The notes beneath the pieces were generated by a model. It saw only the letters and a program-made list of their open reading frames with translations, was not told the origin of the DNA and ran no database searches. Made by a program: the position numbers and the translations under genes. A stretch of 64,000 nucleotides of DNA from Candidatus Peribacteria bacterium (GTDB lineage Bacteria > Patescibacteriota > Gracilibacteria > Peribacterales > Peribacteraceae), in contig JBEPVF010000002.1 in NCBI GenBank assembly GCA_041691135.1, forward strand, positions 160,001 through 224,000, in the 5' to 3' direction. This document shows, in pieces, positions 2,656-30,079 of the stretch. Position 1 is the first letter of the stretch, and every line of letters begins with the position of its first letter.

Positions 2656-4206
2656 GTGTCCGAAGACCAAAGCGCTGATGAAAGGCAATACTTTGAGAAC
2701 CTTGCGACAAATTGTCGTGCTCAATCAGTAACAGTACCTCACACTCAAACTAGTAAGCGACTTGCCAAACTTGATGACCATCAAGTGGAAGCGATGGAAA
2801 AAATTGCTGAAGCTGTAGAAGGAGGAATTGAAAGACAACAAAATACAATCCGTGGCTTAATCACACATTGTTGCGGCTCAGGTAAAACTTGGGTTCAGAC
2901 CAATCTTGCAATTGCCTCAGCTCTTGCTCGTAAGAATTCAGACAATCAAAACGGAAAGGATATTCTTGTCGGAACAGAACGATCTTCCATCCTTCAACTC
3001 GAAGACTATTGCAATAATGCAGGTCTAGATACAGGCGTATGGGGCGCTGGCAGGCGCATGTTAGACCGACCAACTTTAGTGACCACTATTCAAGCGCTTC
3101 AGGTAAATCAAAGAGATCTCAATCGACTTTTTGGAAACAACATACACTTGCTTGTCGGTGACGAAGCAGATTTGTATTTAAGCGGACCTCGTTCAGAAGT
3201 GATCAAGCAAGTTCCCGCCAAAGTAAAAGTTGGCTTCACGGGAACACCCGATTTGCCCGACGGGAGACACGCGAGTGAGGTATGGGGTGAAGTTCTAAGT
3301 ACACTCTCTTTGCGCGATGGAATTTTAAAAAGCAAAAACGTTCCACCATATTACTATCTCTATGGAGCAAACATCGATGAGTCTTCTTTCAAAATGCGAG
3401 GCGATGACTACGATCCAAGTACTGTCGCAGCTGCACTTGCACAAGTAGAAATCTGGAACGCACTTCCTGATCTATATGATCGCCTCGTACCCATTGGTCG
3501 GCGCAAGGAGTTACCGACGCTGATGTATTTGCCAAATGTTGATCTTGTTCGTTCCGTGACTGAGGAATTACGGAGGCGACACGGTGATAAATTGGATATT
3601 CGCTACTGGTCAGGTGATGATACCTCTTCGAGTGAGCTCAAGGATGATATAGAAGACTACGATAATGGTAACGTGCACATTCTGGGATTATGTGAGATGG
3701 GCGGAAGAAGTTTAAATTTCGTAAATGCCCGAATCCTCTTCGATTGTTATCCAACTCAGTCTAAACGCAAGTACGAGCAACGAGTGGCAAGAGTAATGAG
3801 GCGTATTTGGCCAGGCTCAGAGTTACATAACCGTGGCATTAGAAAAGAAGGATGCACTATTATTCAAATAGTTCCCACACGTCGCCAGGGTAGCCATTAC
3901 TTTCGCCCGGTAACCCTACCCGATATCTTAGGTGAAGATACTTGGATAGATGTAAAAAAAGGACAACCCTTGCTGGCAGGACAGCGTAATCACGATGACT
4001 CCAATGGCGCTCCTATCTTGCAAGATATTATTGATTTACGTGAGCAAATCCAAGCGCAGAACCCTGACTATTCACTCCAGCTCATTCAAGAATTAGACGT
4101 ACTACGAGAACTACGTACACGTGGAAATCTGCCGCGAGCAGATCTCGACGGAGGACGTTTTTACTTAGGCCGAAAATATGTCCGCAGAGGATCTCCCACT
4201 GAATAA
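2656..4206 (+). CDS. Superfamily 2 (DEAD/DEAH, ResIII-like) helicase/ATPase
   Basis: Walker A CGSGKT, motif II GDEAD, motif III GFTGTP, motif VI YEQRVARVMR. Confidence 0.85.
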   Translation: MSEDQSADERQYFENLATNCRAQSVTVPHTQTSKRLAKLDDHQVEAMEKIAEAVEGGIERQQNTIRGLITHCCGSGKTWVQTNLAIASALARKNSDNQNGKDILVGTERSSILQLEDYCNNAGLDTGVWGAGRRMLDRPTLVTTIQALQVNQRDLNRLFGNNIHLLVGDEADLYLSGPRSEVIKQVPAKVKVGFTGTPDLPDGRHASEVWGEVLSTLSLRDGILKSKNVPPYYYLYGANIDESSFKMRGDDYDPSTVAAALAQVEIWNALPDLYDRLVPIGRRKELPTLMYLPNVDLVRSVTEELRRRHGDKLDIRYWSGDDTSSSELKDDIEDYDNGNVHILGLCEMGGRSLNFVNARILFDCYPTQSKRKYEQRVARVMRRIWPGSELHNRGIRKEGCTIIQIVPTRRQGSHYFRPVTLPDILGEDTWIDVKKGQPLLAGQRNHDDSNGAPILQDIIDLREQIQAQNPDYSLQLIQELDVLRELRTRGNLPRADLDGGRFYLGRKYVRRGSPTE

Positions 4207-5671
4207 CGACGGCGATAAGGAGCGATGGGGCATTCCAGAAGGATGGAGTGAGGTCTTGAATTTACCTGTAAAAACTATTAAAGATCGAATGGAAATTTCA
4301 GAAGGCGATCAACACTTGGACGGAAACGGCAGAATGAGAATCTTCTATGCTGAATCGTATGTGCGCGAGCAACTTAAAGATGTCTTGGAAATGTCAATAG
4401 CACAAAGAGGAGGAGGTTTCATGCGAAAAGGCGAATTACATGGCCACAAAAAATTTTGGTCAGACTATTTAGAAGAAAGTTTCAAAATGGAAAAGGGCTG
4501 TATATCAATACTACTAAATCAATATGGAGAAGGCGTCACTGGTATAACTCATGCTGGCACCATAAGAGATGAGGCATATTTTCCTGAGAGCCAAGTAATG
4601 AATATTGTGGAAGCAATTCCTATGGCCGATAAAGAAAAATGCCTAAGACAAGGAGATAATTACTATTGGACAATCCACAGTAGTCCTGATGACTATCGTG
4701 ATAGATTTGATTTTCAATATGACGAAATTGTCATTGCAAAATCTCCATCAGGCAAAGCTAGAATTTATTATCTCGAGGAAGCTGTAGAGCGCGTTAAAGG
4801 ATACAATCCGCACAAATTCGAGGAGGAGATGCTTCTAGCTACAGAAAGACGTATCAAAATGAACGAAGCAGAACGTCTTGCTCCACAATTCGACTTAAAA
4901 AGACAGTATATGCGCTGTGATAGAAAGACTGTTGAATCAATGACAATCACCGAAGCTAATAATATAGAATCTATGGTTGCAATTGCAATAGATACTCATC
5001 CTACATCAGCAGACTTTTTAACTTTTCGAAACAGTATACTGCGCTTTAGAATTGGATCTTGGCAAAGATTTGCAAAAGTATTTGGCTACAATGGTGATCC
5101 AAATGAGGATTTCATACTTCGTCTAAAAATTGCAGAAAGGATATATGGAAAAGAAGATCCATTTGTTATTACAAAAACATTAGAAACTTATGAGCTTCTG
5201 AAGTACCCCCATGAAGAGTTGGGTGAAGTTGCACTTCAATGGGCAGATGATATAAGAGCAAAGGCGGTAAACTCTGAAATATGGTTCAATTGCGCGGAGC
5301 AATTGGCTAAGAAACATTACAGGATTAGTGATACTGCTCTTCACAAATTTGCAAAGAGAGTGGGCTATTCAGCAGGACGACTTAAACACCCTGAGGTGAG
5401 AATGATAATTGGATTTATCCTCTATGGAACTAATGATCAGTTCTTATTTTCGCGCATAGAGCAATATGAGTCGCTAAACCTTCTGATTAGAGGAAGATTT
5501 TTTAATGTGCCTAAGAAAGATCCAGAAATAAGGCACGATGCTACTGGAGAAATCATCGACCCTTCTGCTGATTTCGTAATTAGTCCATTTGCCCCCGAAT
5601 CACAGAAAGCTCCATTTTGGCTTAAACAACTTCGACAAAGACTAATTGACTCTAAAACTGCACAAGAATAA
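4178..5671 (+). CDS. Hypothetical protein, possibly the frameshifted C-terminal half of the helicase
   Basis: 497-aa AT-rich ORF overlapping the helicase end by 29 nt in the +1 frame; degenerate repeats such as IFYAESYV, AYFPESQV and IYYLEEAV. Confidence 0.65.
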   Translation: MSAEDLPLNNDGDKERWGIPEGWSEVLNLPVKTIKDRMEISEGDQHLDGNGRMRIFYAESYVREQLKDVLEMSIAQRGGGFMRKGELHGHKKFWSDYLEESFKMEKGCISILLNQYGEGVTGITHAGTIRDEAYFPESQVMNIVEAIPMADKEKCLRQGDNYYWTIHSSPDDYRDRFDFQYDEIVIAKSPSGKARIYYLEEAVERVKGYNPHKFEEEMLLATERRIKMNEAERLAPQFDLKRQYMRCDRKTVESMTITEANNIESMVAIAIDTHPTSADFLTFRNSILRFRIGSWQRFAKVFGYNGDPNEDFILRLKIAERIYGKEDPFVITKTLETYELLKYPHEELGEVALQWADDIRAKAVNSEIWFNCAEQLAKKHYRISDTALHKFAKRVGYSAGRLKHPEVRMIIGFILYGTNDQFLFSRIEQYESLNLLIRGRFFNVPKKDPEIRHDATGEIIDPSADFVISPFAPESQKAPFWLKQLRQRLIDSKTAQE

Positions 5672-5701
5672 CGTTCCCCTTAATCCTTCCCCTCCTCCCT
5701 T

Positions 5702-6127
5702 ATGGATTTCTCCAACATCAATCTCCTTGCCGTCCTCGTCGCAGCCATCGCTGCCTTTGTGATCGGCTTCCTGTGGCACGGGCCGCTCTTCGGCAAACAG
5801 TGGATGGCGATGATGAACATTCCTCAGTCGGAAGTGGATGCTATGCAGGCCAAGGGCATGGGACCGATGGTGCCCAGTATGATCGCCGCGCTGGTGCAGC
5901 AGATCATCACCGCATTCGTCATGGCACACCTCGCCAACGCACTCGCAATCACCGATGCCACAGCCGCCGTGCTGTTTGCCGTCTTGATCTGGCTCGGCTT
6001 CTTCGCAACGACGATGCTCAATGCCGTGCTGTGGGAGAAGAGAAAGATGAATCTGTATCTGTTCAACATCACCTACCATCTCGTCTCGCTCATCGTTGTC
6101 GCACTGATCGTGGTGCTGTGGCGCTGA
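5702..6127 (+). CDS. DUF1761 family membrane protein
   Basis: INLLAVLVAAIAAFVIGFLWHGPLFGKQWM N-terminus; four hydrophobic helices. Confidence 0.85.
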   Translation: MDFSNINLLAVLVAAIAAFVIGFLWHGPLFGKQWMAMMNIPQSEVDAMQAKGMGPMVPSMIAALVQQIITAFVMAHLANALAITDATAAVLFAVLIWLGFFATTMLNAVLWEKRKMNLYLFNITYHLVSLIVVALIVVLWR

Positions 6128-6151
6128 ACATTGGAATCATTTCACTCAAAT

Positions 6152-6182
6152 AAAAAGGAGCTGCCCTGCAGCTCCTTTTTTT
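6152..6182. terminator. Bidirectional intrinsic terminator
   Basis: AAAAAGGAGCTGC-cct-GCAGCTCCTTTTT between convergent genes. Confidence 0.85.
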
Positions 6183-6219
6183 CCCTTTCCCTCTGATGTC
6201 ATCGATTCGCATACCTCGA

Positions 6220-6963
6220 CTACTGAGCCGAGGAAGTCTGATTTGTTGCAGTCCCCTTCGACGGACGCGTTGGGAGCGTCACGCCTTTTTCGGCTGCGAT
6301 TTGCTGAATCGTCTTACCGCTGTCGAGTGCCGTTTGGAGTTCTGCCTCCGTCATACCGAGTTTCTGCGCGAGCATATCGTTACGCGGACCGTGTCTGAAA
6401 CCCATTGGAGATGCCGGTAATGTCACGCCTTTTTCCGTGGCGATTTGCTGGATAGTCTTTCCCCCGGCGAGCGCCGCTTTAAGTTCCGTCTCGGTCATAC
6501 CGAGTTTCGCAGCGAGCTCAGCCGAATTCGGACCATCATGTCCCGAGCCACCGCGGCCGCCGAAGCCGAATGGCATCATGGCGGACTTCAGGCCGGCATT
6601 CGCCGTGATCGCATTTTGAACGGTCGCACGCTCGGCTTGATCGGCTGTCTTAACAGCCGCTTCGCGTTGCGTTTCATCGGTGATAGATGCGGCCGCTGTG
6701 AGTGCGGCTATATGCGTTTGGGCAACGTTTTTCTGGATCGTGACCATAGCATCGATGTTCGCAAGGAATGCATTATCTCTGGCAATGAGGTCTTGAACGC
6801 TCTGTTGCGTCGAACCGGGAATCACGCGTGGAGAAAATGCTGTGTTGGTCGCACCGGACTCCGTTGGGGCCGAAGCGGCACTGGATACCTGGGCAATGAT
6901 CGGCACTGCGAGTGCCAGTGAGGACATACCGGCGATGACGCCGAGTGTGAATTTATTCTTCAT
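6220..6963 (-). CDS. Secreted helical-repeat protein
   Basis: Signal peptide MKNKFTLGVIAG...; two copies of LAxKLGMTExELxxALxxGKTIQQIAxEKGVTLP. Confidence 0.75.
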   Translation of the reverse strand: MKNKFTLGVIAGMSSLALAVPIIAQVSSAASAPTESGATNTAFSPRVIPGSTQQSVQDLIARDNAFLANIDAMVTIQKNVAQTHIAALTAAASITDETQREAAVKTADQAERATVQNAITANAGLKSAMMPFGFGGRGGSGHDGPNSAELAAKLGMTETELKAALAGGKTIQQIATEKGVTLPASPMGFRHGPRNDMLAQKLGMTEAELQTALDSGKTIQQIAAEKGVTLPTRPSKGTATNQTSSAQ

Positions 6964-7046
6964 AGAATGAGGTGGTAAGAAGTAAAAAAGTAAATCTTGT
7001 CGCGACAATTGCCACTATAAGGACGTGACATTAAGACAGGCATAAA
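6878..7046 (-). repeat. Promoter/leader/signal-peptide repeat, copy 2
   Basis: Direct-repeat homolog of 1469-1640; palindrome TTGTCGCGACAA at 6997-7008. Confidence 0.9.
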
Positions 7047-7325
7047 TATTTCTATTACTTTGACTAGATATTTCTCACCACCTTTTATTCACTCCCTCAG
7101 CAATAAATGTATGTGAAACAAAATACTTGACAAAAATTTACATAGAGAGTTTAATCAGACTAACACGAAAAGGCCCGACATCATCACTTTGCCCACCCCA
7201 ACTGCCGCTTCCATTAGCCCCCGGCGGCGCTTTCTTTGCATATACCACATTCACCGGCCACATCATCGGCACAGTTGTACCTGTTCTTTTACATATCGGA
7301 ATAGCAGTAATTTCCCCCTATTTTT

Positions 7326-8024
7326 ATGAACCGCATTTCTTCCCCTAGCGAAGGCAGTCCTACACCAGAATCATCACCGCGCATCGGATTCGATAGCCCT
7401 GATTTGAATAAGCCATTGCCACCATCGATCCAAAATATCATTCGTGGCAAAACAAAGCATATTCTCGACAATCCGGAGTCCAAGAAGGATGAACCGACCC
7501 CAAATGAACCGCCAAGCTTCCCGATCGATACCATCGATGGATCGTCCGGCACCCAGCGACCGCCGAAGCAACCTGCTTCTATATCTCCTGATTCACAGGC
7601 ACAAACACCAAGCGAATCTCTTCGCGATCGCGAGCCTCCCATGCCAACCATTCGTCCGACAGACAAAGAAGCTACGCCTTACTCATACGATAGTTGGAAA
7701 GTGGAAAGTGATCGCCGACGTGAGGAATGGCGAGCAGCATCGTATCAACGGCAACAGCAATTTCTGGACGAATCCGATAAGAGGCATCAGGAATTCATGG
7801 CAGAAGTAGAGCGAGACCACCAGGAATTTCTACTGTTGATTCAAGACACTAATGCGGAATTCATACGCTGGGTCATAGAAACACACCAGGAGTTCATGCG
7901 ATGGTGTGACGAGTCTCACAGTCAATTCATGATGACATCTCAGATGCAGATGGACGCATTCCATATGCATTTGCAGCAAGACGCTCTCACCGGCGCAACC
8001 GCACCAAGCGTATCCGCTGAATAA
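7326..8024 (+). CDS. Hypothetical protein: Pro/Ser-rich N-half plus 11-residue helical repeats
   Basis: An aromatic residue recurs every 11 aa from W124 to F212; HQEF occurs three times. Confidence 0.7.
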   Translation: MNRISSPSEGSPTPESSPRIGFDSPDLNKPLPPSIQNIIRGKTKHILDNPESKKDEPTPNEPPSFPIDTIDGSSGTQRPPKQPASISPDSQAQTPSESLRDREPPMPTIRPTDKEATPYSYDSWKVESDRRREEWRAASYQRQQQFLDESDKRHQEFMAEVERDHQEFLLLIQDTNAEFIRWVIETHQEFMRWCDESHSQFMMTSQMQMDAFHMHLQQDALTGATAPSVSAE

Positions 8025-8045
8025 TCTCTTTTCCCCCTCTTAATT

Positions 8046-8621
8046 ATGGTCGCTCTTCCCGCACAGCCATCGCGCGAGCCAGAGAAACAACCATCGCTTA
8101 TTCTGTCACCCTCCGACTTGAGCAGGGCACCTGACAATAGTCTCGACGATATCGATTTCACTAATAGTGTATACGCCGGGATCGCTCAGTTGCTCGAACA
8201 ACTTGCCATTGTGGAACGACGAATGGAAGCACAGCCGCAAACGCAAGATGGGCAAGAGTCACACGATATTTCTGCAGACGTGGTAGACGAGAAGCACCGG
8301 ACTCGTCAGCGTCTGCATGATATTTTTCTACGGGATCACGACTATGCAAACGGACCCCAAATGGTTCTGATGCCGTCCGATGTGTATGCGCATCCCCTGT
8401 CTCACAACAAGCTGCGTTTTCGCGATACCACCTTGAAGGAAATCGCTCGCTATATTGATACGATCGCCACCTACGAAAAGGAGTTGGAATCGCATCTGAC
8501 AAATCGTGACTCGCTGGATAAACTCGAGAGACAAGCGATGATTGCAAGTACGCTCGGTCACTTGAAAAGTCACAAGGATCACCTGACCAAAATATTGACG
8601 GGTTTTTTTGATCGACGGTGA
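8046..8621 (+). CDS. Hypothetical helical protein
   Basis: 191-aa ORF 21 nt after the previous gene, preceded by a pyrimidine-rich leader. Confidence 0.6.
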   Translation: MVALPAQPSREPEKQPSLILSPSDLSRAPDNSLDDIDFTNSVYAGIAQLLEQLAIVERRMEAQPQTQDGQESHDISADVVDEKHRTRQRLHDIFLRDHDYANGPQMVLMPSDVYAHPLSHNKLRFRDTTLKEIARYIDTIATYEKELESHLTNRDSLDKLERQAMIASTLGHLKSHKDHLTKILTGFFDRR

Positions 8622-8636
8622 ATGGCTACGGCTTCC

Positions 8637-8664
8637 GCCCCGTCCCCCACAAAGGGGACGGGGC
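8637..8664. repeat. Perfect 11-bp GC-rich hairpin without a U tract
   Basis: GCCCCGTCCCC-cacaaa-GGGGACGGGGC. Confidence 0.7.
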
Positions 8665-8945
8665 TCAGCTACAACAATCTCAGACAACAACTATTCTGAT
8701 CATGACATGCAATGGTGGTGACCTGACGACTATCGGGCTGCACCGTAATACGGGAACGGCAAGTAATAGGCGAACTCTTTACGAGAAACTTCTGACTCTG
8801 TCGCCTGTTCAGGAGAATGAATGGACATGGGAGAGGGCGCATTCTAGATTTTTTCTCGCGGGTAGCAAGAAAATCGAACACAACATTCCCTGTGACGTTT
8901 ATCAGACCATCGATTTTTTACGAGATCAGAAGCTTACAATTGGCT

Positions 8946-11900
8946 TTAGCGCAGATACGCACGTACCACCCATCCCTGATGCCAACTATAGCGCACTTCT
9001 GCCCAGTCGCCGCGTATCGATAGCAATTCGACGACAGTGTCAGGATCAAAAGACGTGAGCGCAGGGGAATCGAGCGATGGTTCCACATGGAGCTTCAAAG
9101 ACGCCGTCGTCGTGAGCATTTGTCCACCGGGAGCTGCGGGTAAAACAGACCCTGCCGAATGCATCGTTGCAGTATCAAGTGGCGTCGCGTGCGTCACTGG
9201 CGGAAGAGCCGCGAGTGCGTTCATGACGTAGAGACTGATGACTTTGCTGACCTCGGCACGATTGATGGCATCATCCGGACGGAACGTGGTGGCATTGCCA
9301 TCTCCTTTAACAAACCCCAGCGCTACAGCCGTAAGAACTGCACGGAAGTGCGGATGCGATGCGGGAAGATCCGAAAACGTATTCTGCGCGGGTGATGGCA
9401 AAGCCTCGGATGGGATCAAAGAGAGGAGCATCGCTACCACTTCCGCACGCGTAGCCGGACGAGCGAGATTCTCCGGTAAAGACAGACCTAAAGATGCAGC
9501 TTGTTCTCGGTAGGGAGCTGTCCAATCTTCCACGGAAGAACGCGCCGGCGAATGACCGGTGGCTTCGAGAACCATCTTGAGGGATTCGGCAACCGTCACG
9601 TTGTCCGCCGGCTTGAACAGACCGGTCGGCGTTCCATCGGCATTCGCATACCCGGAAACGATCCCTTTCTCCGCCAACAGTGCGACATAGTCGGCGAACC
9701 AACTCTGTGGCGGCACATCAGTAAAGGAAGGCGCCGAGGGTGCGGGAGCCGCTGGGTGTGATGGACTGTCGGGCGTGGATGGCGAAGGCGCGGAAGGTGT
9801 GGGACCAGAAGGAGTCGTCGTATTTGAACCCCTGCTGCCACCTCTACTACCACCACCTCCGCCACCTGATGTCGTTGTCGTACTAGAACTCCCGTTTACC
9901 AGCTGGGATAACACCGACGATGTCGATGTCAGCCAATTAGTATTGCCATTGTATGTGGCGGTAAGACTCTGTGTACCCGCCTCGAAGCCGGAGACAGTAA
10001 CCGAACCGGAACCATGGCCCAGAGTGACCGTCCCAAGCGTCGCGATCCCATTAAGAAAGGTGACCGTACCAGTAGCAGTGGACGGTGTGACCGTCGCCGT
10101 GAATGTGACGGATTGATTGACGATGGACGGATTGGGAGACGAGCCCAGCGAAAGGGCTGTGGTACCAGAGCCAACGGTCTGCGTCAGAGTAGAGGAAGTA
10201 CTGGTCGCGTAGATGACATTGCCAGCATATACAGCGCTGAGTGAATGCGTTCCAGTGGTGAATGAGGAGACACTCAGTGTTCCGGATCCCTGGCTGAGCG
10301 TTGCCGACCCGAGCGAGCTAACGCCGTCGTAGAACGTGACGCTACCGGTGGCACTGGATGGCGAGATCGTCGCAGTGAGCGTGGTGCTTGATCCGAATCC
10401 CGAAGGATTCACGGACGAGGTGAGCGTGGTAGTGCTCGGACTGAGTACTTCGTATATCACGCTCGTCGAACCAGTATCGGTAAAGGTCAGCCGACCGGAC
10501 CCATTGGTAGTGGTGGTGGTGAGTGCGGATCCGTTCTTCTTGATCTGATACGTCGTCGACGCCGCCAGGTTGCCGATGGTGTGCGTCACGGACGGAGTGA
10601 CGCCCAGAATGGTCTCAGTCCATTTTTTGTAATACGGAGCTAACGTATTCCACGTAGACATGACGACGGTACCGTACTTGGCATAATTACCGACAGTGAA
10701 GCCCGCCGCGGGCGCGATCGCTAAGTCAGAGCTTTTCCCGACAGCAGCAGTGGCATTGCGATACTTGCCGTTCTTGTACACCGTCAGTGAGCCGCTTGCG
10801 TCGACTTGGTCCGTCGCCATCACATACGGCGGCTGGTACTCAAGTGCGCCGAAATCCGCCGCACCGTACAACGGATTGCCCAGCAGATCGACGGTGAAGG
10901 ACGTGCCAGTACCGGTGTCGATAACCGGCGAGTTGTAGGGTAGCGTGTAATCATACGTGCTCACATCGGTGAACAACGGATCGGAAGTGAGACTATGCGT
11001 GTCAAAGCCCAGTGCCTGCCATTGGGCAAATGTTTTGTATACTGCATCGTAATAGGCGCTATTTCCGGCGGTCGTTCGATAGATGGTATTGTAATCACTG
11101 GTAAAACCGGCTTGGGACGTGGTGTCATCGAACGTTATCAGGGAAGAGACCGCGCCTTTGGTTTCCAAAATATTATTGCGCAGCATCGCACCAGAGCCGT
11201 ACTGGCCTGCATTATTGATTGAAATATTTATGAGATCGAAGGATGAATAGCCCGTCGTCGCATCGGCATAGATCGTGTTGTTGGTTACTGCCAGATTCGC
11301 CGTACCTTTGATGCGAACGCCGGTGAAACCTTTGTTGTTGATAAGCTTGTTGTAGAAAACGCCGCCACTCGTGTTCGACCCGCCTATTGATTTCATGACG
11401 ATGCCATACCCTTCGCCATTGACCGTATTGTATTGCACGATACCGTTGTAATTATGGCCGAACAGAATGCCGTGCGTTGTAACTTGAGTGTTAAGAGAAG
11501 TATTGTAGTAATACGGACCGTAAATGGTATTTCCCTGGATGATTCCACCATTATATTTCGTGTCACCCGCGGTGCTATTGTCTCTGCCGAGAGTGATACC
11601 AATACCGCCCCACGAACGAGATCTGATGGTGTTATTGAGGATGCGCGGCACCCCGCCTCCTCCGCCTTGCGATGTCACATTGATACCGTTTAAGGATCCA
11701 GTACCAGTCGTATCAAGCGTGTTCCCCTGAACTACGGGGGAAAACTGGTCCGCGATGTACATAAGACCGTTGGTATTAGCGGTGACCCCCGTCGTCTGCA
11801 TAGTAATCGTGTTGCCACTAAGCGTTGTTCCCCATGTTCCGGCATCCACTTGGATGGGACTTCCAGCCGTCGTAGGTACGTTGATGCTCATCGTATTATT

Positions 11901-18438: not shown

Positions 18439-18975
18439 TCACCCTACGATCTTCATAATCGTATTCCAGTTCCTCGTCGTCACATTTTTGCCGAACTCCT
18501 TCTCTATTATTTTCATCGCATCGGGCGTGTGGACATCCGGCGAAAGCGTGAGGACGCTGCAGATGTCTTTTCCACGCACTTGCAGAATCTCGAAACTCTT
18601 GTCGGGCGAGACATAGGGGATCTTGAGTTTGCTCGCAGGCTTTTCCGGCAGCAGGGAAATATACAGCCGTACCTGCGGCGTCACGCGGATTTTTTTGAAT
18701 GGTTCGCCATCGGCCAAATCTTTGAGTTCATCGACCGTTCGTACGATAACGCTGATGTGACGATCATATTTTTTTTCTAACTGCTGCTCGATTGTTTTTG
18801 ACGCAACTTTTTTTGCCGCATCGAACAGTACGTTACCACTGGCGAGAAGCGTCTTCACATTCGTAAATCCCATCGACTCGAATGCCTGCTTCAAATCAGA
18901 CATCTTGATTAAGTTGTTCCCACCGACGTTGATACCACGGAGAAAAGCAGCATGCGGAATATGAGCCTTATTCAT
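18439..18975 (-). CDS. DUF1697 family protein
   Basis: AFLRGINVGG, TLLASGNV and TTRNWNT motifs. Confidence 0.9.
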   Translation of the reverse strand: MNKAHIPHAAFLRGINVGGNNLIKMSDLKQAFESMGFTNVKTLLASGNVLFDAAKKVASKTIEQQLEKKYDRHISVIVRTVDELKDLADGEPFKKIRVTPQVRLYISLLPEKPASKLKIPYVSPDKSFEILQVRGKDICSVLTLSPDVHTPDAMKIIEKEFGKNVTTRNWNTIMKIVG

Positions 18976-23490: not shown

Positions 23491-23512
23491 GTCTGCTGGT
23501 ACTCTTGTGTCT

Positions 23513-24082
23513 ATGAATCCCTCCCGACTCGAAGCCTTCAGTGACGGCGTGATCGCCGTCATTATCACCATAATGGTGTTGGAAATAAAAATGCCACACG
23601 GCGCCGATATTCTGGCACTGCAGCCGTTGGTTCCGGCGTTCTTCGGTTACGTTCTCAGTTTCGTCATCATCGGCATCTATTGGAACAACCACCACCACTT
23701 GCTCCACGCGGCCAAGCACATCGATGGCCGGATCATGTGGGCCAACTTGCATCTGCTTTTTTGGCTCTCATTACTGCCTTTTTTGACCGGCTGGCTGGGC
23801 GAATATCCGGCCGCACCATGGCCGACAATGCTCTACGGAGTCGGGTTACTACTGTGTGCTATTTCCTACACCTTGCTTCAAACATCCATCGTCGCGTTAC
23901 ATGGCAAAGATTCCGACCTTGCAAAAGCATTGGGTGGCGACTTGAAGGGAAAGCTCTCGATCATTCTGTACGCGACGGCAATCATATTGGCTTTTTCACT
24001 GCCGTGGATATCGTATGTACTGTACGTTGCGGTCGCGCTGATGTGGTTCATTCCCGACCGGCGCATAGAGAACCAGGGATAA
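23513..24082 (+). CDS. TMEM175 family potassium channel
   Basis: RLEAFSDGVIAVIITIMVLE and YWNNHH motifs. Confidence 0.92.
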   Translation: MNPSRLEAFSDGVIAVIITIMVLEIKMPHGADILALQPLVPAFFGYVLSFVIIGIYWNNHHHLLHAAKHIDGRIMWANLHLLFWLSLLPFLTGWLGEYPAAPWPTMLYGVGLLLCAISYTLLQTSIVALHGKDSDLAKALGGDLKGKLSIILYATAIILAFSLPWISYVLYVAVALMWFIPDRRIENQG

Positions 24083-24090
24083 TGAATGGC

Positions 24091-24672
24091 CTACGGATGC
24101 AGCACCTCACTTTTCGCAAGCATTTCGACAAACATCTTGATCCGCTTTTCGCGCGTTTCGGGTTTTTTTGCCGTCTGTAAACGATAGACGATTGCATACA
24201 GATTCTGCTTGTTGAGTGTCTCGAAAAACGATTTCGCTTTTTTATTCTTTTCCAGCACCTTCAAAAAATCCGCCGGGATCTCCATGGTGCTATGCGAATC
24301 GTAGGCGCGTTGCCAGCGGCCGTCTTTTTTTGCCAATGTCACTTCTTGCAGCCCTGATGCCTGCATTCGCCCGACTTTGATCAGTCGCTGCACATGCTGT
24401 GTATTGCGCTTCGACCAAGCGCTCTTGGCACGCCGCGGCGTGAAGCGTTGCAGCCACGATGCATCGTCATACGGCTGCTTCTGTCCATCGATCCAGCCGT
24501 AACACAACGCCACATCGAGTGCTTCGTCGTAGGTGACGGATCGCTCGCCGGAATTCTTTTTACTCAGTCGCAGCCACAAACCTTTCTCTTTTTCATAATG
24601 CGCCGCCAGCCACTTTTCCCACGCGGCAGACGTGGCGAAGTGGCGGATGGGAAGATCGGTGGGATGAGCCAT
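24091..24672 (-). CDS. YdeI/OmpD-associated family protein
   Basis: ALCYGWIDG, FTPRR..S.WSKRN and AKKPETREKR. Confidence 0.9.
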   Translation of the reverse strand: MAHPTDLPIRHFATSAAWEKWLAAHYEKEKGLWLRLSKKNSGERSVTYDEALDVALCYGWIDGQKQPYDDASWLQRFTPRRAKSAWSKRNTQHVQRLIKVGRMQASGLQEVTLAKKDGRWQRAYDSHSTMEIPADFLKVLEKNKKAKSFFETLNKQNLYAIVYRLQTAKKPETREKRIKMFVEMLAKSEVLHP

Positions 24673-24799
24673 AGAGATAGAGTGTACATTGTTGATAATG
24701 AACAATTATTGTATACAAAATTCAAAAGAAGATCTTTGTCCTTCTCAATAGCGAAATATACCGATCATCCTGCACATTTCTATACGCTTTTACCGACCT

Positions 24800-26635
24800 G
24801 TGTTTAGCTATGGTATGGCCAGCATTTCTTTTCGGGAAAGCGACACCATTTTGGACAATCAATTTCTGGAGTACGCCCAAGGAGGACCATCGTGCCTGTC
24901 AGAAGTTATCGACCGTTATCAACGAGAAATAATCGCAAGTATCAGAAATACAACAAGGGACTACAGCGTCGCGGAAGACATAGCGCAGGATGTTTTCTTT
25001 TTTTTACATCAACAACCGGAAACATATCGGGGACCTCATCTTAAACCATGGCTCCATCATATTGCGCACCAAAGAGCAGTCCATTATATGGTGCAGAAAA
25101 AAAGACGAAGGCAAGTGCGACCTGAAGATATAGAGCGATGGCATGCACGCGGCAGAGCCACATTGGCTCCGTACACACACTGTGACGAAGGCAATATTCC
25201 ATTTGAAATGGTCATCGATAATCGTGAGCCTGAACCCTACGACGCATTGATGCGGAATGATTATCAAATGATCATTCAGGAAGTCCTCCAAACCACTTCG
25301 ACTATTCAGCGCGAAATTTTTCAGCTCTATTACACTGGAAATTTTACACATCCCGAAATTGCAGAACGTGTGGACGCGTCTGTCAACGGAGTAAGAAGTA
25401 CTATATTCAGAACATCTGAACGCATACGAAAACTCATTGCAGATCGAGAAAGTGAAAAGGGGGAATTCACTTATACGGATGCTACTGATGCGGAACTATC
25501 CATGGATGACGTGGCACGAGATTGTATCCAACTAGAAACGATCTCGAAAGGAACAGCGCGTCAACGCCGCTATAGGGCAAGAATAACTGCATCAGCAGAT
25601 GCGGCTAACAACAATTCCATAGGTGAAGATGTTCCGCGTTTTAAGAAAATACCAAAATGGATGGCGGCTCTTACAGAAGAAAGTGCTACCCAGCTGTATA
25701 ATGTTCTTACTGACAAACCTTCCAAAGCCAAACTTCGCGCTTTCTTCAAACAACTTCTGGCACCGGGTGAAAATAGGAAGGAAGAAAAATTAGCTCGAAC
25801 CACTTTAAATCAAGCAGATGGCGTGCAAGCCCAACTGATCCAATTCATTCACGATCTGGGTAATTCCGAACGTGTTCTCGGTAAATTTGTTCAATCACCG
25901 AATCTCCTTAGGGCCAGAGAACAGCAAGAAATTATAATTCCCAATTTGAACACGCTTATTGTTTCGCACTTCAAACAATATCCCAAGCTGGAGTCGGAAC
26001 GCACATTATTGGATATCGGTGCATGGGACGGCCGCTTAACAAGTAGTCTTCGTGATTATTTCGGTGCTATGTATGCCGTCGAACCGAACCCACAGCGCTT
26101 CGGTGAGATGCTCAAACGAAGGACTCCAAAATTGATTCCCATACAAGCAACCGCACAACGATTGATGGAAATGGATGATATTCCTTCTCCTGATGTTATC
26201 CTCATGAGTCATTTGCTGTACTTTTTCCAAGATGAAAAAGATGACGAGCTCCTCAATTGGGCCGTAGAAAAACTTCCCCGCAAAGGACTTCTACTCACCG
26301 TCCTCAATGATCTGGTGCCAGACGGAGCAACAAGGGCGCATTTACGACGTGAGTTACACGGACGAGAGCGGAATCCGTGGCCATCGCGATACTCGGAATA
26401 TCTACAGCGCAAAGGCATGTCTGTCTCCGTAATGCGACCGAGTCTTCGATGTACAAGTACGACACCCGAAGGACTTGAGGCCACACGTGATCTCATGCGC
26501 TTTATGCTTCCGCGCGAATCGCAAGGTGAAGAATCACTGGAACAGTATGTGCAACGGTATGTCGCGAATAGAAATGGCGTTGGTCAGCATCAATTCACCC
26601 ACACGTTATACATCATGGCGGCACGCAAACAGTAG
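24800..26635 (+). CDS. ECF-type sigma-70 factor fused to a class I SAM-dependent methyltransferase
   Basis: Region 2 AEDIAQDVF...WLHHIA; region 4 QREIFQLYY...EIAERV..SVNGVRSTIFR; C-terminal LLDIGAWDG, AVEPN and DVILMSHLLY. Start is 24800 or 24815. Confidence 0.8.
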   Translation: MFSYGMASISFRESDTILDNQFLEYAQGGPSCLSEVIDRYQREIIASIRNTTRDYSVAEDIAQDVFFFLHQQPETYRGPHLKPWLHHIAHQRAVHYMVQKKRRRQVRPEDIERWHARGRATLAPYTHCDEGNIPFEMVIDNREPEPYDALMRNDYQMIIQEVLQTTSTIQREIFQLYYTGNFTHPEIAERVDASVNGVRSTIFRTSERIRKLIADRESEKGEFTYTDATDAELSMDDVARDCIQLETISKGTARQRRYRARITASADAANNNSIGEDVPRFKKIPKWMAALTEESATQLYNVLTDKPSKAKLRAFFKQLLAPGENRKEEKLARTTLNQADGVQAQLIQFIHDLGNSERVLGKFVQSPNLLRAREQQEIIIPNLNTLIVSHFKQYPKLESERTLLDIGAWDGRLTSSLRDYFGAMYAVEPNPQRFGEMLKRRTPKLIPIQATAQRLMEMDDIPSPDVILMSHLLYFFQDEKDDELLNWAVEKLPRKGLLLTVLNDLVPDGATRAHLRRELHGRERNPWPSRYSEYLQRKGMSVSVMRPSLRCTSTTPEGLEATRDLMRFMLPRESQGEESLEQYVQRYVANRNGVGQHQFTHTLYIMAARKQ

Positions 26636-26647
26636 ATTGAAACGTGA

Positions 26648-27013
26648 TCACTTCTTCCGCTGTGCCCGCCACCGTTCTTCCATTCTGCCGATATGATCGT
26701 GATCGAAACCGAAGTAGTGGGCGATCTCGTGCCACAGAGTTTCGCGGACGAGTGACGGTATTTCTTCGGGTGATCGGGCCACACGTTCGATGGATGCGCG
26801 GTACAACGTGATCTTGTCCGGCGGTTTGCCGTTAAAATCACGACCCCACGTGGTAAGGGGGACACCTTCGTACAGTCCCAGCAGAATCCCCTTCCGATGC
26901 GGCGGCGGGTCTTCTTCGATTGCAATCAATACATCGCTTAATTTTTCGCGAAGCTGATCCGGTAGCGCATCGACTGTGTCTTTCACAATCGCTTCGTAGG
27001 TCTGATGATCCAT
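26648..27013 (-). CDS. Zincin-like metallopeptidase (Zincin_1)
   Basis: LLGLYEGVPL, PDKITLYR and HEIAHYFG. Confidence 0.9.
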   Translation of the reverse strand: MDHQTYEAIVKDTVDALPDQLREKLSDVLIAIEEDPPPHRKGILLGLYEGVPLTTWGRDFNGKPPDKITLYRASIERVARSPEEIPSLVRETLWHEIAHYFGFDHDHIGRMEERWRAQRKK

Positions 27014-27063
27014 GCGCCCAGACTACACCGCAACGAGCGCGACCGAAAATTGTTGCCATACTT

Positions 27064-29472
27064 TTACTGCCGGGTCAGCTCATGTTCTTGGACACCCGGA
27101 TAATAGTAACTAAGGATTTGTTCGGCCGTTTTTCCCTCGTTCGCCTGACCGGCGGCTCCGCAACCGGACATGCCCACGCCATGGCCTTGCATCGACATGC
27201 CGGTACACCACGGATCGGGTTTGCTGGCGAAGACATCGGCATTCGGAAAATTCTTCCAGTTCGCTTCCTGTGGGGACCGTGTGCGACCATCGTCACTGGA
27301 GAAGTACGGCGGTTTGATGATGTCGCCCTTCGTCATCAAAACTTGATTGGCCGTACTGGTCACCGCCTTCACCCACTGCGGATTCTTGGTTTCGAATGAT
27401 GCGCCCGCATACTTCTGGAACGAATCGGGACTGTCCGAACCGTCGTACGGTTGGCCGGGAAATTTGCGATTGTGCTGGTCGAGGTAGTACGCCGCATAAC
27501 TGCGCGCCGCGACGGCGAAGGCCCGTTGTTTCTCGTACGGTTCGCTATCGGGCTCTTCGCCCAGACCGAGCAGGTATCGATCGAGCGGCAGTTCGTTGAT
27601 TAGAGCCAATTTTCCATCAATGACGCGGCATTCCAGCACGCCGCGAAATTGGTTCTCTCCACGCGGAAAGGCCGACACTTTGGTGAACACGTCGCCGGGA
27701 TTGATGCGCACGATTCCTTTGGCGATCTCCTGCCCGTCACGTTCGGCACGACAATCGGTATCGCTCATCGAGAGCAGAAGATCGCCCGCCGGCAGTTGCA
27801 CGCTATTCACATACGTGTCGTGTGGGATTCCCACCGTCAGGCTCCCCTTGGCGAAAGTCGCCTCGTTGCGCAGCAAACGGATGCGGATGGTCGGTCCGTA
27901 ATACGGCGCCTGTGCGGCTGCCGTCTCCGCCGCGGCGAGCGGCTTACTCAGTTCTCGCTGCAGCCGGTGCTCGCCCACTTTGGTACTGACGACGTGCGCG
28001 GGAGTTCCGCCGACATGGACGGCGTACAGAATGCTGCCCACCTTCAGCTGATACTCGCCGGCATCGGGCGGCAGTTGCACTCGCAAGTGCAGCGCAACGG
28101 ATGCGTTGGCGCTCAGCGGCGCAGGTAAAAGCAAATCGTTGACCAGACGTGTGGACAGAAATTCCGTCGCTTGCCACACCTGGAAACGCGGATCTGACGC
28201 CTTGATCGAACCGATCTTCGTGCGTTGTGCCAGCGCCATATTGCTCGCCTGAAACTGAAAGTCGAGTTGCACGATATCGCCGGGATGCCCGGTTACATCC
28301 GCGCTCGGATAGATGAAAATTCCGTTCGTGCCGATGGCGATGGAACGCGGTTGTTTTTCGGCGGAAGACGACACATCGATTGCGGCCGGCGGCGGAGGCG
28401 GGAAGCGCACATCAGCCGACACTTTTCCGGTCCGCGCATTATCGCGAATCTGATCGAGCACGCCCCGCACATAATAACCCGGACAACGAGTGCCCATCAG
28501 ATCGCCATGACCGACAACGGGAGGCATGTCGCGACCGTGGAAGGTAACATTTTTTGTCAGATCCACGCTGTACTTCTGACTGAGGGTAACCAGCAATGAC
28601 TGCAGACTGTGGATCTGTTCCTGCGTCGGTTTTTCGGTATCGGTATTGCCCATCAACGCGATGCCCATCGTGCCGACGTTGTAACAGAAGGCATGCCCGC
28701 CCACGACGTCGTCACCGCCCTGGCGTCCCTCGTATATCTGACCGTCTTCGTCGACCACATAGTTGTAGCCGATATCTCCCCATCCGCGGCTCTTGGCATG
28801 GTATTGGTAAATCGCCCGCATGCGTTCCACCGCACTGCGCGTTTCGCCGGTCACCTGATCGGCCGTGTGATGGATTACAAATAATTTAATCGACGGTGAA
28901 TACTGGATCGGCCAACTGTACGGTTTTCCATCGGGTGCTGTGCTCACCGTTTTCGTCACTGTGAATTCATCCGGATAGTTTTTCTGCAGCTGAGCGCAAT
29001 TGACCGTGCGTGACGGAACCTGGTCACTGCGCATCACCGCGTTCAACTCGGCTTCGGTGACGATCTTATCGCCGATGGTGAGACTCTCGTCGGCACCCCA
29101 GTCGCTACGCGAGAGAATATGCGGCGGACCGGGATCATCGGTGGAGGCCGTCGTGTAGTGCACCGGATCGTGCGAGACACGGATGGGATGCAATTGATCG
29201 TCGACGCTCGCACCGCGGATCCGCACCAGCGAAACGGACTCCTTGAACATGACGAGCGTGGACTCCGTCACAGTCGGATCTTCCTCATCACGCTCTACCG
29301 TGTACCACGGCGACCACTGGGTGCCTTCCCAGGCACTCACATCAGCACTCGTCGCCGACGAAACAAATCCGATGCTGAGCGCATCGATCGGCTGATCGAA
29401 CCGATACTGTTGCATGGCAGGCGCCGACGCCGTCAGGAGCAGCAGACTGCCGAAAAGAAACCACGATCGCAT
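27064..29472 (-). CDS. Secreted N-acetylmuramoyl-L-alanine amidase (Amidase_2) fused to a SpoIID/LytB domain
   Basis: IHHTA, GWGDIGYNY, GH.D...T.CPG; then INELPLDRYL.G, AVAARSY and GHGVGMSGCGA. Confidence 0.88.
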   Translation of the reverse strand: MRSWFLFGSLLLLTASAPAMQQYRFDQPIDALSIGFVSSATSADVSAWEGTQWSPWYTVERDEEDPTVTESTLVMFKESVSLVRIRGASVDDQLHPIRVSHDPVHYTTASTDDPGPPHILSRSDWGADESLTIGDKIVTEAELNAVMRSDQVPSRTVNCAQLQKNYPDEFTVTKTVSTAPDGKPYSWPIQYSPSIKLFVIHHTADQVTGETRSAVERMRAIYQYHAKSRGWGDIGYNYVVDEDGQIYEGRQGGDDVVGGHAFCYNVGTMGIALMGNTDTEKPTQEQIHSLQSLLVTLSQKYSVDLTKNVTFHGRDMPPVVGHGDLMGTRCPGYYVRGVLDQIRDNARTGKVSADVRFPPPPPAAIDVSSSAEKQPRSIAIGTNGIFIYPSADVTGHPGDIVQLDFQFQASNMALAQRTKIGSIKASDPRFQVWQATEFLSTRLVNDLLLPAPLSANASVALHLRVQLPPDAGEYQLKVGSILYAVHVGGTPAHVVSTKVGEHRLQRELSKPLAAAETAAAQAPYYGPTIRIRLLRNEATFAKGSLTVGIPHDTYVNSVQLPAGDLLLSMSDTDCRAERDGQEIAKGIVRINPGDVFTKVSAFPRGENQFRGVLECRVIDGKLALINELPLDRYLLGLGEEPDSEPYEKQRAFAVAARSYAAYYLDQHNRKFPGQPYDGSDSPDSFQKYAGASFETKNPQWVKAVTSTANQVLMTKGDIIKPPYFSSDDGRTRSPQEANWKNFPNADVFASKPDPWCTGMSMQGHGVGMSGCGAAGQANEGKTAEQILSYYYPGVQEHELTRQ

Positions 29473-29542
29473 CAGCCGCATTTTACATGGCAACGCGCGA
29501 GCTGCTAATGACAACCCGCCCGACCGGAGTATGCTGAACAAC

Positions 29543-30079
29543 ATGCGGCACGGATTCTCCCTGGCGCTGTCGGCGAGCATCATTCTTACACTCGTAGGAT
29601 GCAGCAGTCCGCGCATCGACAATACCGCCGGTTGGCCGACGTTTCAGTCCGATGACTTCGGTTTTAACGTACTGATGCCCGGTACTCCGCAAAAAATATC
29701 CCGGGAAGTGCCGAGCGCCACCCCCGGCGTGACGATTCCCATCTTCGTGTTCACCACCACGGAATCAGGCGGTCCCAACTATGATGTGACGGTGACCGTT
29801 CTGCCGCGCGCGTTCAATACGGTCGACGCGCAGTCGGTACTGGCCAATGCACTCGACGGTCTGAAGCAGGCTTACTCGGGCAGCACCATCACCCAAAAAA
29901 TATTCAGCGCGCACGAAAAGAAGCCGTCGCTCGATTTCGTCTTATCATTGCCCGCTTCCCGCTCGGTGCGCGGCATGATGATCAGCGTCGATCATCAGAT
30001 CTACCAAGTGACCATCACCGGTGACGTCGCGAATAACAATCATGATGCGCTCTTCTTGCAGTCATTCCATCTGCTGTAA
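29543..30079 (+). CDS. Putative lipoprotein
   Basis: Lipobox LVGC after a hydrophobic stretch; W.TF.S...GF.V.MPG.P pattern. Confidence 0.7.
   Translation: MRHGFSLALSASIILTLVGCSSPRIDNTAGWPTFQSDDFGFNVLMPGTPQKISREVPSATPGVTIPIFVFTTTESGGPNYDVTVTVLPRAFNTVDAQSVLANALDGLKQAYSGSTITQKIFSAHEKKPSLDFVLSLPASRSVRGMMISVDHQIYQVTITGDVANNNHDALFLQSFHLL

Follow-up and report, generated by a model that had tools for sequence, protein, structure and literature searches.

A divergent ECF-type sigma factor of a Peribacteria bacterium carrying a methyltransferase-fold module that recurs with sigma factors in its family

Why would a sigma factor carry a methyltransferase within the same polypeptide? This question is raised by a single gene in a 64,000-nucleotide stretch of DNA (the window; positions 160,001 to 224,000 of contig JBEPVF010000002.1) from a Candidatus Peribacteria bacterium, a member of the Candidate Phyla Radiation (CPR). 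The gene, which we refer to as P0001, encodes a protein of 611 amino acids (aa) in which the core of an extracytoplasmic function (ECF)-type sigma factor is followed by a methyltransferase-like module. From the comparisons described here, the module looks like an undescribed sigma-factor partner, as its relatives recur both fused to sigma factors and encoded next to them. The best explanation we can offer, to which we assign a little less than an even chance, is that P0001 is a one-component sigma factor whose cognate partner module is held in cis and senses S-adenosylmethionine (SAM), S-adenosylhomocysteine (SAH), or a substrate. The parts of the protein referred to throughout are as follows.

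24800..26635, plus strand: the whole P0001 open reading frame (ORF), 611 aa, ECF-type sigma core plus methyltransferase-like module.
24908..25108, plus strand: sigma region 2 (residues 37-103), Pfam PF04542 at 37.2 bits against a cut-off of 24.
25109..25270, plus strand: spacer between sigma2 and sigma4 (residues 104-157, 54 aa), too short for region 3, with a predicted local distance difference test score (pLDDT) of 34-62 in the full-length model.
25271..25432, plus strand: sigma region 4 helix-turn-helix (residues 158-211), PF08281 and PF04545, pLDDT 87-90.
25436..25651, plus strand: junction segment (residues 213-284), partly flexible, homologous to the segment preceding the module in giant sigma fusions.
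25652..25984, plus strand: helical lid subdomain (residues 285-395), conserved in the family alignment and helical in the AlphaFold2 model.
25985..26632, plus strand: predicted Rossmann-type class I SAM methyltransferase core (residues 396-611), from AlphaFold2, Foldseek, VIA, and profile matches.
26006..26032, plus strand: motif I L-L-D-I-G-A-W-D-G (residues 403-411), with Trp at the expected middle Gly of GxGxG.
26303..26350, plus strand: post-beta5 motif L-N-D-x5-G-(S/T)-R-A-H-L-R (residues 502-517), where the family has its most conserved polar patch.

What places the module with sigma factors in general, rather than with this one gene? A HMMER search with residues 216-611 against 1.84 billion cluster representatives retrieved 69 relatives of the module at E<=1e-3, including 33 at E<=1e-10 and 24 at E<=1e-30. 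Among 34 database relatives scanned with Pfam, seven (P0004, P0007, P0010, P0011, P0020, P0025, and P0028; 891-1493 aa) have Sigma70_r2/r4, with or without r1.2 and r3, on the N-terminal side of the module, and P0010 additionally contains a domain like the C-terminal domain of the RNA polymerase alpha subunit (alpha-CTD). The sigma-to-module order is the same in all nine fused proteins. Nine species-representative genomes from the family of the source organism hold the module, and in six of them it is linked to a sigma factor. In five genomes, including the source genome (G000), the module lies within two genes of a large sigma factor with an alpha-CTD-like tail. The arrangements in the six genomes are as follows.

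G000: the ECF fusion described here, plus a 706-aa sigma factor, an 871-aa sigma factor, a 267-aa gene, and a 787-aa module protein, all on one strand.
G210: a 663-aa sigma factor overlapping the start of a 609-aa module protein downstream, same strand.
G894: a 662-aa sigma factor with alpha-CTD, followed ~25 nt downstream by a 612-aa module protein, same strand.
G427: an 806-aa sigma factor with alpha-CTD, with the module gene directly downstream (~78 nt), same strand.
G154: a module protein, a 436-aa gene, and then an 801-aa sigma factor with alpha-CTD.
G286: an 844-aa sigma-module fusion.

The large sigma factors neighboring the module are homologous to each other over 400-660 residues and also to P0010 in its N-terminal part. 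Residues 207-768 of the G154 sigma factor, for instance, match residues 141-634 of P0010 with 35% identity (E 9e-73). P0010 therefore appears to combine in one protein what the two-gene arrangement encodes separately. In a FastTree phylogeny of the module (32 sequences, 246 columns), from which ECF relatives were excluded because MAFFT placed ECFs on the methyltransferase region, sigma-fused modules occupy at least three places: a clade of giant fusions (support 0.95), P0011, P0010, and P0001. The P0001 module groups with the 787-aa paralogue from its own genome, P0006, and P0023 (support 0.87), not with the giant fusions. These scattered positions, together with the lack of any BLAST match between the P0001 ECF part and the sigma parts of the giant fusions, point to the module having been joined to sigma factors several times independently, and to more than one class of them. 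The preliminary description of this gene had reasoned that homologs found only as separate genes would make the fusion a matter of chance or misassembly; instead, relatives of the module are both fused to sigma factors and adjoining them. Judged from gene arrangement, the recurrent fusion and adjacency amount to Rosetta-stone evidence for a probable functional link between the module and sigma factors.

Is the N-terminal part of P0001 itself a recognizable sigma factor, and of which type? Region 4 is matched by Sigma70_r4_2 (PF08281) over residues 158-205 at 40 bits (cut-off 25.7) and by PF04545 at 23.8 bits, while the NCBIfam sigma70-ECF model TIGR02937 scores 68.6 bits against a cut-off of 42.9. 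No match to PF00140 or PF04539 was obtained at E<=1 for regions 1.1/1.2 and 3, and the best matches among the sequences of solved structures are the ECF sigma factors 7qh5, 8z6g, 6in7, and 1or7. By the presence of regions 2 and 4 and the absence of regions 1.1/1.2 and 3, the sigma part is predicted to be of the ECF (group 4) type. It is nonetheless a divergent one: all NCBIfam subfamily and equivalog models stay well short of their cut-offs, the best paralogue in its own genome is 21.5% identical, and its nearest relatives in 150 family genomes are stand-alone ECFs with 22-31% identity. A word-index homologue search with the whole of P0001 returned only P0001 itself, and the same search with residues 1-225 against shorter proteins returned nothing. 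Since a canonical RpoD-like sigma factor of ~517 aa is present in G000, as it is in every one of the 151 family genomes searched, P0001 would be an alternative rather than a housekeeping sigma factor. G000 has eight region-2 matches within a family range of 2-9 per genome, and there is no obvious link between sigma count and module presence, the module holders having 5-9 per genome.

The frame joining the two halves runs for 611 codons from a GTG, with no internal stop, so the uninterrupted ORF with sigma regions 2 and 4 of the preliminary description is borne out. The public gene call (P0002; 515 aa, window 25088-26635) starts at Met97 and thereby cuts off sigma region 2. Its precomputed Pfam list contains region 4 alone, which hides the ECF nature of the protein in the public annotation. 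Since the open frame continues upstream of Met97 and matches region 2 there at E 2.5e-9, the real start is probably GTG 24800 or ATG 24815. The lack of a Shine-Dalgarno-like core at P0001 is uninformative here because such cores are rare throughout the genome (58 of 565 crude long-ORF starts). The genome assembly comprises 1.74 Mb in 35 contigs and is 92% complete, with the window located on a 274.7-kb contig. The contiguity of the sequence, which the preliminary description had wanted confirmed, is reproduced by an 8147-nt Logan contig from one public DNA run that spans 24000-27500 with 0 differences; as this run is possibly the source sample, it rules out an artefact of one assembler rather than serving as independent support. 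That DNA run is the one public run listed for the P0001 stretch, and no RNA run is listed. With a GC content of 45.9% versus 52.9% for the genome (5.5th percentile of equal-sized windows), the ORF is also AT-richer than the genome, much as the preliminary description had remarked in comparing it with its neighbors.

What kind of domain, then, is the C-terminal module? All Pfam methyltransferase models score below their gathering thresholds (Methyltransf_23, 23.6 versus 27, E 4.6e-5; Methyltransf_12, 19.3 versus 30; Methyltransf_11, 18.4 versus 21.2), and the ESM Atlas yielded generic methyltransferase clusters only. An AlphaFold2 model of residues 271-611, built from a 35-sequence alignment, reached a pLDDT of 91.3 and a predicted template modeling score (pTM) of 0.83. 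Foldseek matched this model to BioC (8x8j, E 3.5e-12), followed by JHAMT (7ec0), YcgJ, Tam (2p35), and HNMT (1jqd). VIA, which is independent of Foldseek, found 1xxl (Z 19.6, root-mean-square deviation 4.3, 209 aligned), and among its 50 listed matches, with Z of at least 17.3, all are methyltransferases. When compared with the sequences of solved structures, the family profile matched best to CypM (7wzg, 2e-5), a peptide N-methyltransferase, and METTL9 (8gze, 1.6e-4), a protein-histidine methyltransferase, with L-D-L-G-A-G-D-G and A-T-E of METTL9 aligning with L-D-I-G-A-W-D-G and motif II of the module. The C-terminal module is thus predicted with confidence to have the class I SAM methyltransferase fold. 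The three motifs on which the preliminary description had based this assignment can be placed exactly, with LDIGAWDG falling within residues 403-411, AVEPN at 426-430, and DVILMSHLLY at 465-474.

Conservation within the family is concentrated on these motifs and on a polar patch. In motif I of P0001 (D405-I-G-A-W-D-G411), the Trp is shared by 22 of 32 distinct family members, and the Glu of motif II (A-V-E-P; E428 in P0001) by 27 of 32, whereas motif IV (D-V-I-L-M-S-H-L-L-Y-F) is typical of the Methyltransf_11/12/23 type. Judging from the conservation of motifs I and II, the cofactor motifs of the module are evidently under selection. The polar residues conserved in the family are N503, D504, R512, H514, R516, Y531, and Y583, and P0001 carries every invariant or near-invariant residue of the module alignment. 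The Trp of motif I is not without a likely parallel, as Tyr68 of catechol O-methyltransferase presumably sits in the G-x-G-x-G loop at the equivalent position. In the available text on that enzyme, Tyr68 belongs to the active site and is needed for methyl transfer to be efficient (PMC5001633). By analogy, a bulky aromatic residue in the motif I loop need not block SAM. The genome encodes metK and makes its own SAM; therefore, SAM auxotrophy provides no special rationale for a SAM sensor.

Between region 4 and the methyltransferase core, the preliminary description had placed a linker of roughly 170 aa. The segment is indeed present, but it is not a plain linker: residues ~285-395 form the conserved helical lid, which opens with the family motif P-x-W-x-x-x-L-x-E-x-x-A-x-(R/Q)-L, and homology to relatives already begins at ~216-220. 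BLAST aligns residues 215-316 of P0001 with residues 584-683 of P0004 (E 1.5e-8), and the HMMER alignments of P0004 and P0028 begin at query residue 3-6. In the full-length model, the junction has a pLDDT of 97 for residues 231-240 and below 50 for residues 265-275.

How widespread is the module? At E<=1e-8, matches were found in 10 of 200 genomes of the same family, among which the nine above are true holders, while none were found in 336 genomes of other families in the class, in 389 genomes from other families of the phylum sample, or in the four genomes of the same genus. The tenth match (G431) was rejected, as it covers only a foreign N-terminus derived from P0017 and the G431 protein is a DUF4139/DUF4140 protein. 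Partial matches in G036 and G038 (loci L006 and L007) are probably the same artefact and were dropped from the counts. The P0017 N-terminus resembles DUF4139/DUF4140 and creates spurious matches to model positions 8-145 (L053 1724-3235). A first module alignment contained no conserved stretch, and a second found one genome record in a species-genome collection; searches with the module alignment gave two weak partial matches in metagenome contigs and one weak match in viral contigs. The close relatives are multidomain metagenomic proteins of 300-1500 aa, and in a check of ten of them, the cluster was a singleton in nine cases and had two members in the other. G000 has three copies, all on contig C2: P0001, the 787-aa paralogue P0005 (C2:57.5-59.9 kb, 35% identical to P0001), and a 622-aa paralogue (C2:228.3-230.1 kb, 25% identical). 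A relaxed Pfam scan detected no helix-turn-helix domain in 18 sigma-less members, and no anti-sigma domain family was detected in the module proteins. Overall, the module is a rare, lineage-restricted family confined to one CPR family among the genomes sampled.

Several further observations concern these module proteins and sigma factors. The sigma cluster of G000 (locus L019, G000:C2:54000-68000, positions 3523-11835, minus strand) lies outside the window. Its 706-aa sigma-70 protein has regions 1.2, 2, 3, and 4 behind a 340-aa N-terminal extension, its 871-aa sigma-70 protein has a weak alpha-CTD-like tail, the 267-aa neighbor belongs to no family, and a WD40 protein is encoded downstream of the cluster. 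Residues 110-183 of P0005 match residues 156-229 of P0020 (32% identity, E 8e-8), running into region 2 of P0020, and P0005 may on this basis be a degenerate former sigma fusion. P0028 (1493 aa) ends in a C-terminal RNase H domain (PF00075, E 1.8e-9). The alpha-CTD-like domain (PF03118, up to 44.9 bits) is found behind region 4 in large alternative sigma-70 proteins (L050 5807-7795; L052 1377-3794; L025 2166-4568; L004 3230-5221; and P0010), and the own RpoA of G000 keeps its CTD (G000:C14, 55.4 bits). A sigma factor with its own UP-element-reader-like domain looks unusual. The PADLOC model for MzaA of the defence system Mza matches sigma regions 2-4 of P0004 (186-424) and P0010 (299-540) at E 1e-36 to 1e-46; this model evidently contains a sigma-70-like domain, and P0001 has no MzaA match.

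What surrounds P0001 in the window? The gene is monocistronic, with unrelated genes of the opposite orientation on both sides.

24091-24705, opposite strand to P0001: YdeI/OmdA-like gene.
24706..24799, no strand assigned: divergent intergenic region upstream of P0001, with weak promoter-like matches only.
26648-27013, opposite strand to P0001: Zincin_1 gene.

A Pfam scan of the neighbors revealed no anti-sigma gene beside P0001, in agreement with the preliminary description. Its suggestion of a delivered effector fared worse, as the protein lacks any hydrophobic segment (the 19-residue Kyte-Doolittle mean peaks at 0.75) and there are no secretion genes next to it. Promoter and terminator scans gave nothing above shuffled sequences (seven weak sigma-70-like consensus matches versus 4.0 +/- 2.0 in shuffles), and a scan of the window with Rfam detected no RNA family. 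The neighbors of P0001 lie on scattered contigs in the congeneric genomes, and no empty insertion site is definable. Farther away, a 191-aa homologue of the TMEM175-type potassium channel is encoded two genes upstream (window 23507-24082, plus strand; PF06736, E 2.9e-32), and an 852-aa protein with Amidase_2 (N-acetylmuramoyl-L-alanine amidase) and SpoIID domains is encoded at window 27064-29622 on the minus strand. Parts of the latter gene have ~70%-identical DNA copies at G000:C10:16969-17531 and 18529-18741.

Does P0001 resemble any described class of sigma factor? ECFs that bear a regulatory extension, as treated in the available text of the ECF review and the ECF classification, have no anti-sigma neighbor and possess a long C-terminal domain, of which SnoaL, TPR, Cys-rich, WD40, DUF1835, and transmembrane types are described (PMC8999054, PMC7826278); according to the same portion of the review, some of these extensions seem to stem from fusion with an anti-sigma factor (PMC8999054). 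P0001 is similar in its sigma2-sigma4 core, in the lack of an anti-sigma neighbor, and in its long C-terminal domain with a ligand-binding or enzyme fold, which extends ~400 aa (>50 aa) beyond region 4. However, it differs in that the extension, 390 aa long, consists of a helical lid and a class I methyltransferase fold, that the same module also serves large group-3-like sigma factors, either fused or neighboring, and that the ECF core fits no NCBIfam subfamily. The preliminary description did not recognize a methyltransferase extension, and neither do these sources: the main text of ECF classification 2.0 contains no mention of the word methyltransferase (PMC7826278), the available text of its supplement has 14 mentions, all of neighboring genes and none of fusions (PMC7826278), and no methyltransferase-type extension is among the types in the available text of the review (PMC8999054). 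A literature search returned nothing relevant on sigma factors fused to methyltransferases, Peregrinibacteria sigma factors, or CPR sigma/alpha-CTD proteins. In these sources and searches, we came across no ECF sigma factor extended by a methyltransferase fold, and no account of the partner module as a sigma-linked family.

Two other comparisons are informative. As with an anti-sigma gene at the +1 position of a sigma/anti-sigma operon, the module gene is directly downstream of the sigma gene in G210, G894, and G427, but the module has no anti-sigma domain and is instead an enzyme fold with conserved cofactor motifs. With class I methyltransferases such as BioC, JHAMT, Tam, HNMT, METTL9, and CypM, the module shares the predicted seven-stranded Rossmann-type fold with an N-terminal helical cap, the Asp and Gly residues of motif I, the Glu of motif II, and the Asp of motif IV. 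It departs from them in scoring below the Pfam gathering thresholds, in the replacement of the middle Gly of motif I by Trp, and in its sigma-linked multidomain setting.

How might such a protein work? The lack of an anti-sigma neighbor, the long C-terminal ligand-type domain, and the location of the module at +1 of other sigma factors together follow the pattern of sigma/anti-sigma pairs or of regulatory extensions. In this Peregrinibacteria-type CPR bacterium, P0001 would accordingly act as an alternative sigma factor that is soluble and made as a single polypeptide, built from a very divergent ECF-type sigma2-sigma4 core (residues ~30-212) and a ~390-residue module of junction, lid, and methyltransferase fold. 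It may represent a Rosetta-stone fusion of a sigma-partner pair, in this case on an ECF-type sigma factor, in which the module would play the part that an anti-sigma factor, or the SnoaL/TPR C-terminal extension of ECF41/42, plays elsewhere. Whether sigma2/sigma4 are available for core RNA polymerase and promoters would then depend on SAM/SAH or a methyl acceptor occupying the module pocket, a form of gating that the preliminary description had likewise proposed. Both halves are intact, as sigma regions 2 and 4 exceed their cut-offs and the module is a confident methyltransferase fold; in the full-length AlphaFold2 model (pTM 0.60), sigma2 has a pLDDT of 61-69, sigma4 of 87-90, and the module >90. 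From what is observed, namely the architecture, the fold, the conservation of the cofactor motifs, and the recurrent fusion and adjacency with sigma factors, we infer SAM binding by the module, its contact with the sigma part, and the gating of the latter.

A number of observations weigh against this explanation. The exact ECF-plus-module architecture occurs in none of the 69 database relatives and in none of the 150 family genomes searched with the ECF part, and none of the four congeners has a match to P0001. No sigma factor was seen near the module in G042, G269, and G482, nor near the third, 622-aa paralogue of G000. In the giant fusions P0025 and P0028, motifs I and II are deleted and the R-A-H-(L/F)-R patch is kept; cofactor binding is therefore not universal in the family, and part of the role of the module may, from these two sequences, be independent of SAM. 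The full-length AlphaFold2 model gives no sign of a fixed arrangement between module and sigma part. Lastly, the conserved SAM-type motifs and polar patch would be no less expected of an active enzyme than of a pure sensor.

This last point leads to the main rival explanation, which we consider possible, though on the whole unlikely, and in which the sigma part delivers an active SAM-dependent methyltransferase to the initiation complex and regulation of the sigma factor is secondary. The enzyme could methylate the sigma factor to which it is attached, a subunit of RNA polymerase, nascent RNA at its 5' end, or promoter DNA. Most members retain motifs I, II, and IV, the conserved polar patch is what would be expected of an active site, the motif I aromatic need not exclude SAM if the comparison with Tyr68 holds (PMC5001633, available text), and the best profile matches, CypM and METTL9, are peptide or protein methyltransferases. 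Other enzyme or nucleic acid-related domains also occur on the giant sigma factors, such as the RNase H of P0028 and the alpha-CTD of P0010. Nevertheless, no target can be named, as the fold matches generic small-molecule and protein methyltransferases with no family standing out and no nucleic-acid methyltransferase signature was seen, and the retention of the module in P0025 and P0028 despite the loss of motifs I and II argues for a role that is partly non-catalytic. Less probable again, in our view, is the more specific proposal that Peregrinibacteria-type CPR bacteria have a family of sigma-tethered SAM methyltransferases, either fused to alternative sigma factors or encoded with them, which methylate the 5' end of the RNA being made, the promoter DNA, or RNA polymerase itself within the initiation complex. 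If true, bacteria would have a form of modification coupled to initiation, with the ECF fusion of P0001 as its most compact version.

More improbable is that P0001 arose recently and only once, as a chimera whose halves have no function together, a duplicate of the module having landed, in this one species, behind a decaying ECF gene whose sigma part may no longer work. Its singleton architecture, its absence from all four same-genus genomes, its AT-richness, the divergence of the ECF part, the low sigma2 pLDDT, and a public gene start that removes region 2 would all fit such an origin. On the other hand, the frame is open for all 611 codons, region 2 is detected upstream of Met97, typical sequence patterns of regions 2 and 4 are readable, and the module keeps all of the family-conserved residues, while the independent recurrence of sigma-module fusion and adjacency in relatives makes joint function the more economical explanation. 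The topology of P0001 also resembles that of PhyR, which has an N-terminal ECF-like domain and a C-terminal signalling-type domain, and its ECF part is unusually divergent; a sensor module could thus expose or hide an ECF-like decoy that titrates the regulator of another sigma factor. We regard this as very improbable, given that a Pfam scan at E<=1 found no receiver domain or PhyR-type sigma-like family, that no NepR-like, anti-sigma, or small partner gene is nearby, and that the module of relatives is located on functional-looking full-length sigma factors with regions 1.2 to 4. Least probable of all, with hardly any credence on our part, is an anti-phage defence component related to MADS. 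The PADLOC mad2 model (PDLC04134) is the best-scoring named profile for the module core, matching residues 393-521 of P0001 (E 6.2e-8) and also P0008 (1.8e-11). However, the match is partial, covering 130-165 of the 492 model positions (285-415 in the case of P0001), which correspond to the generic methyltransferase core; the neighbors are ordinary genes with no other mad genes among them, the recurrent context is that of sigma factors, and viral contigs contributed only the one weak match.

What would a sigma factor with a cognate partner module in cis mean for these organisms? ECF sigma factors with built-in sensors are the "one-component systems" of the sigma factor world, with a handful of extension types known, and P0001 adds to them an enzyme-fold extension with conserved SAM-type motifs. 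The module accompanies sigma factors in several arrangements, fused to an ECF sigma factor, fused to large sigma factors, or encoded within two genes of them. Since the public gene call from Met97 hides the fusion, such proteins are likely to be under-annotated. Should the module prove catalytically active, P0001 would exemplify a sigma factor that brings an enzyme to promoters. The module also offers a way to test how transcription is controlled in CPR bacteria, in which regulation is almost unexplored.

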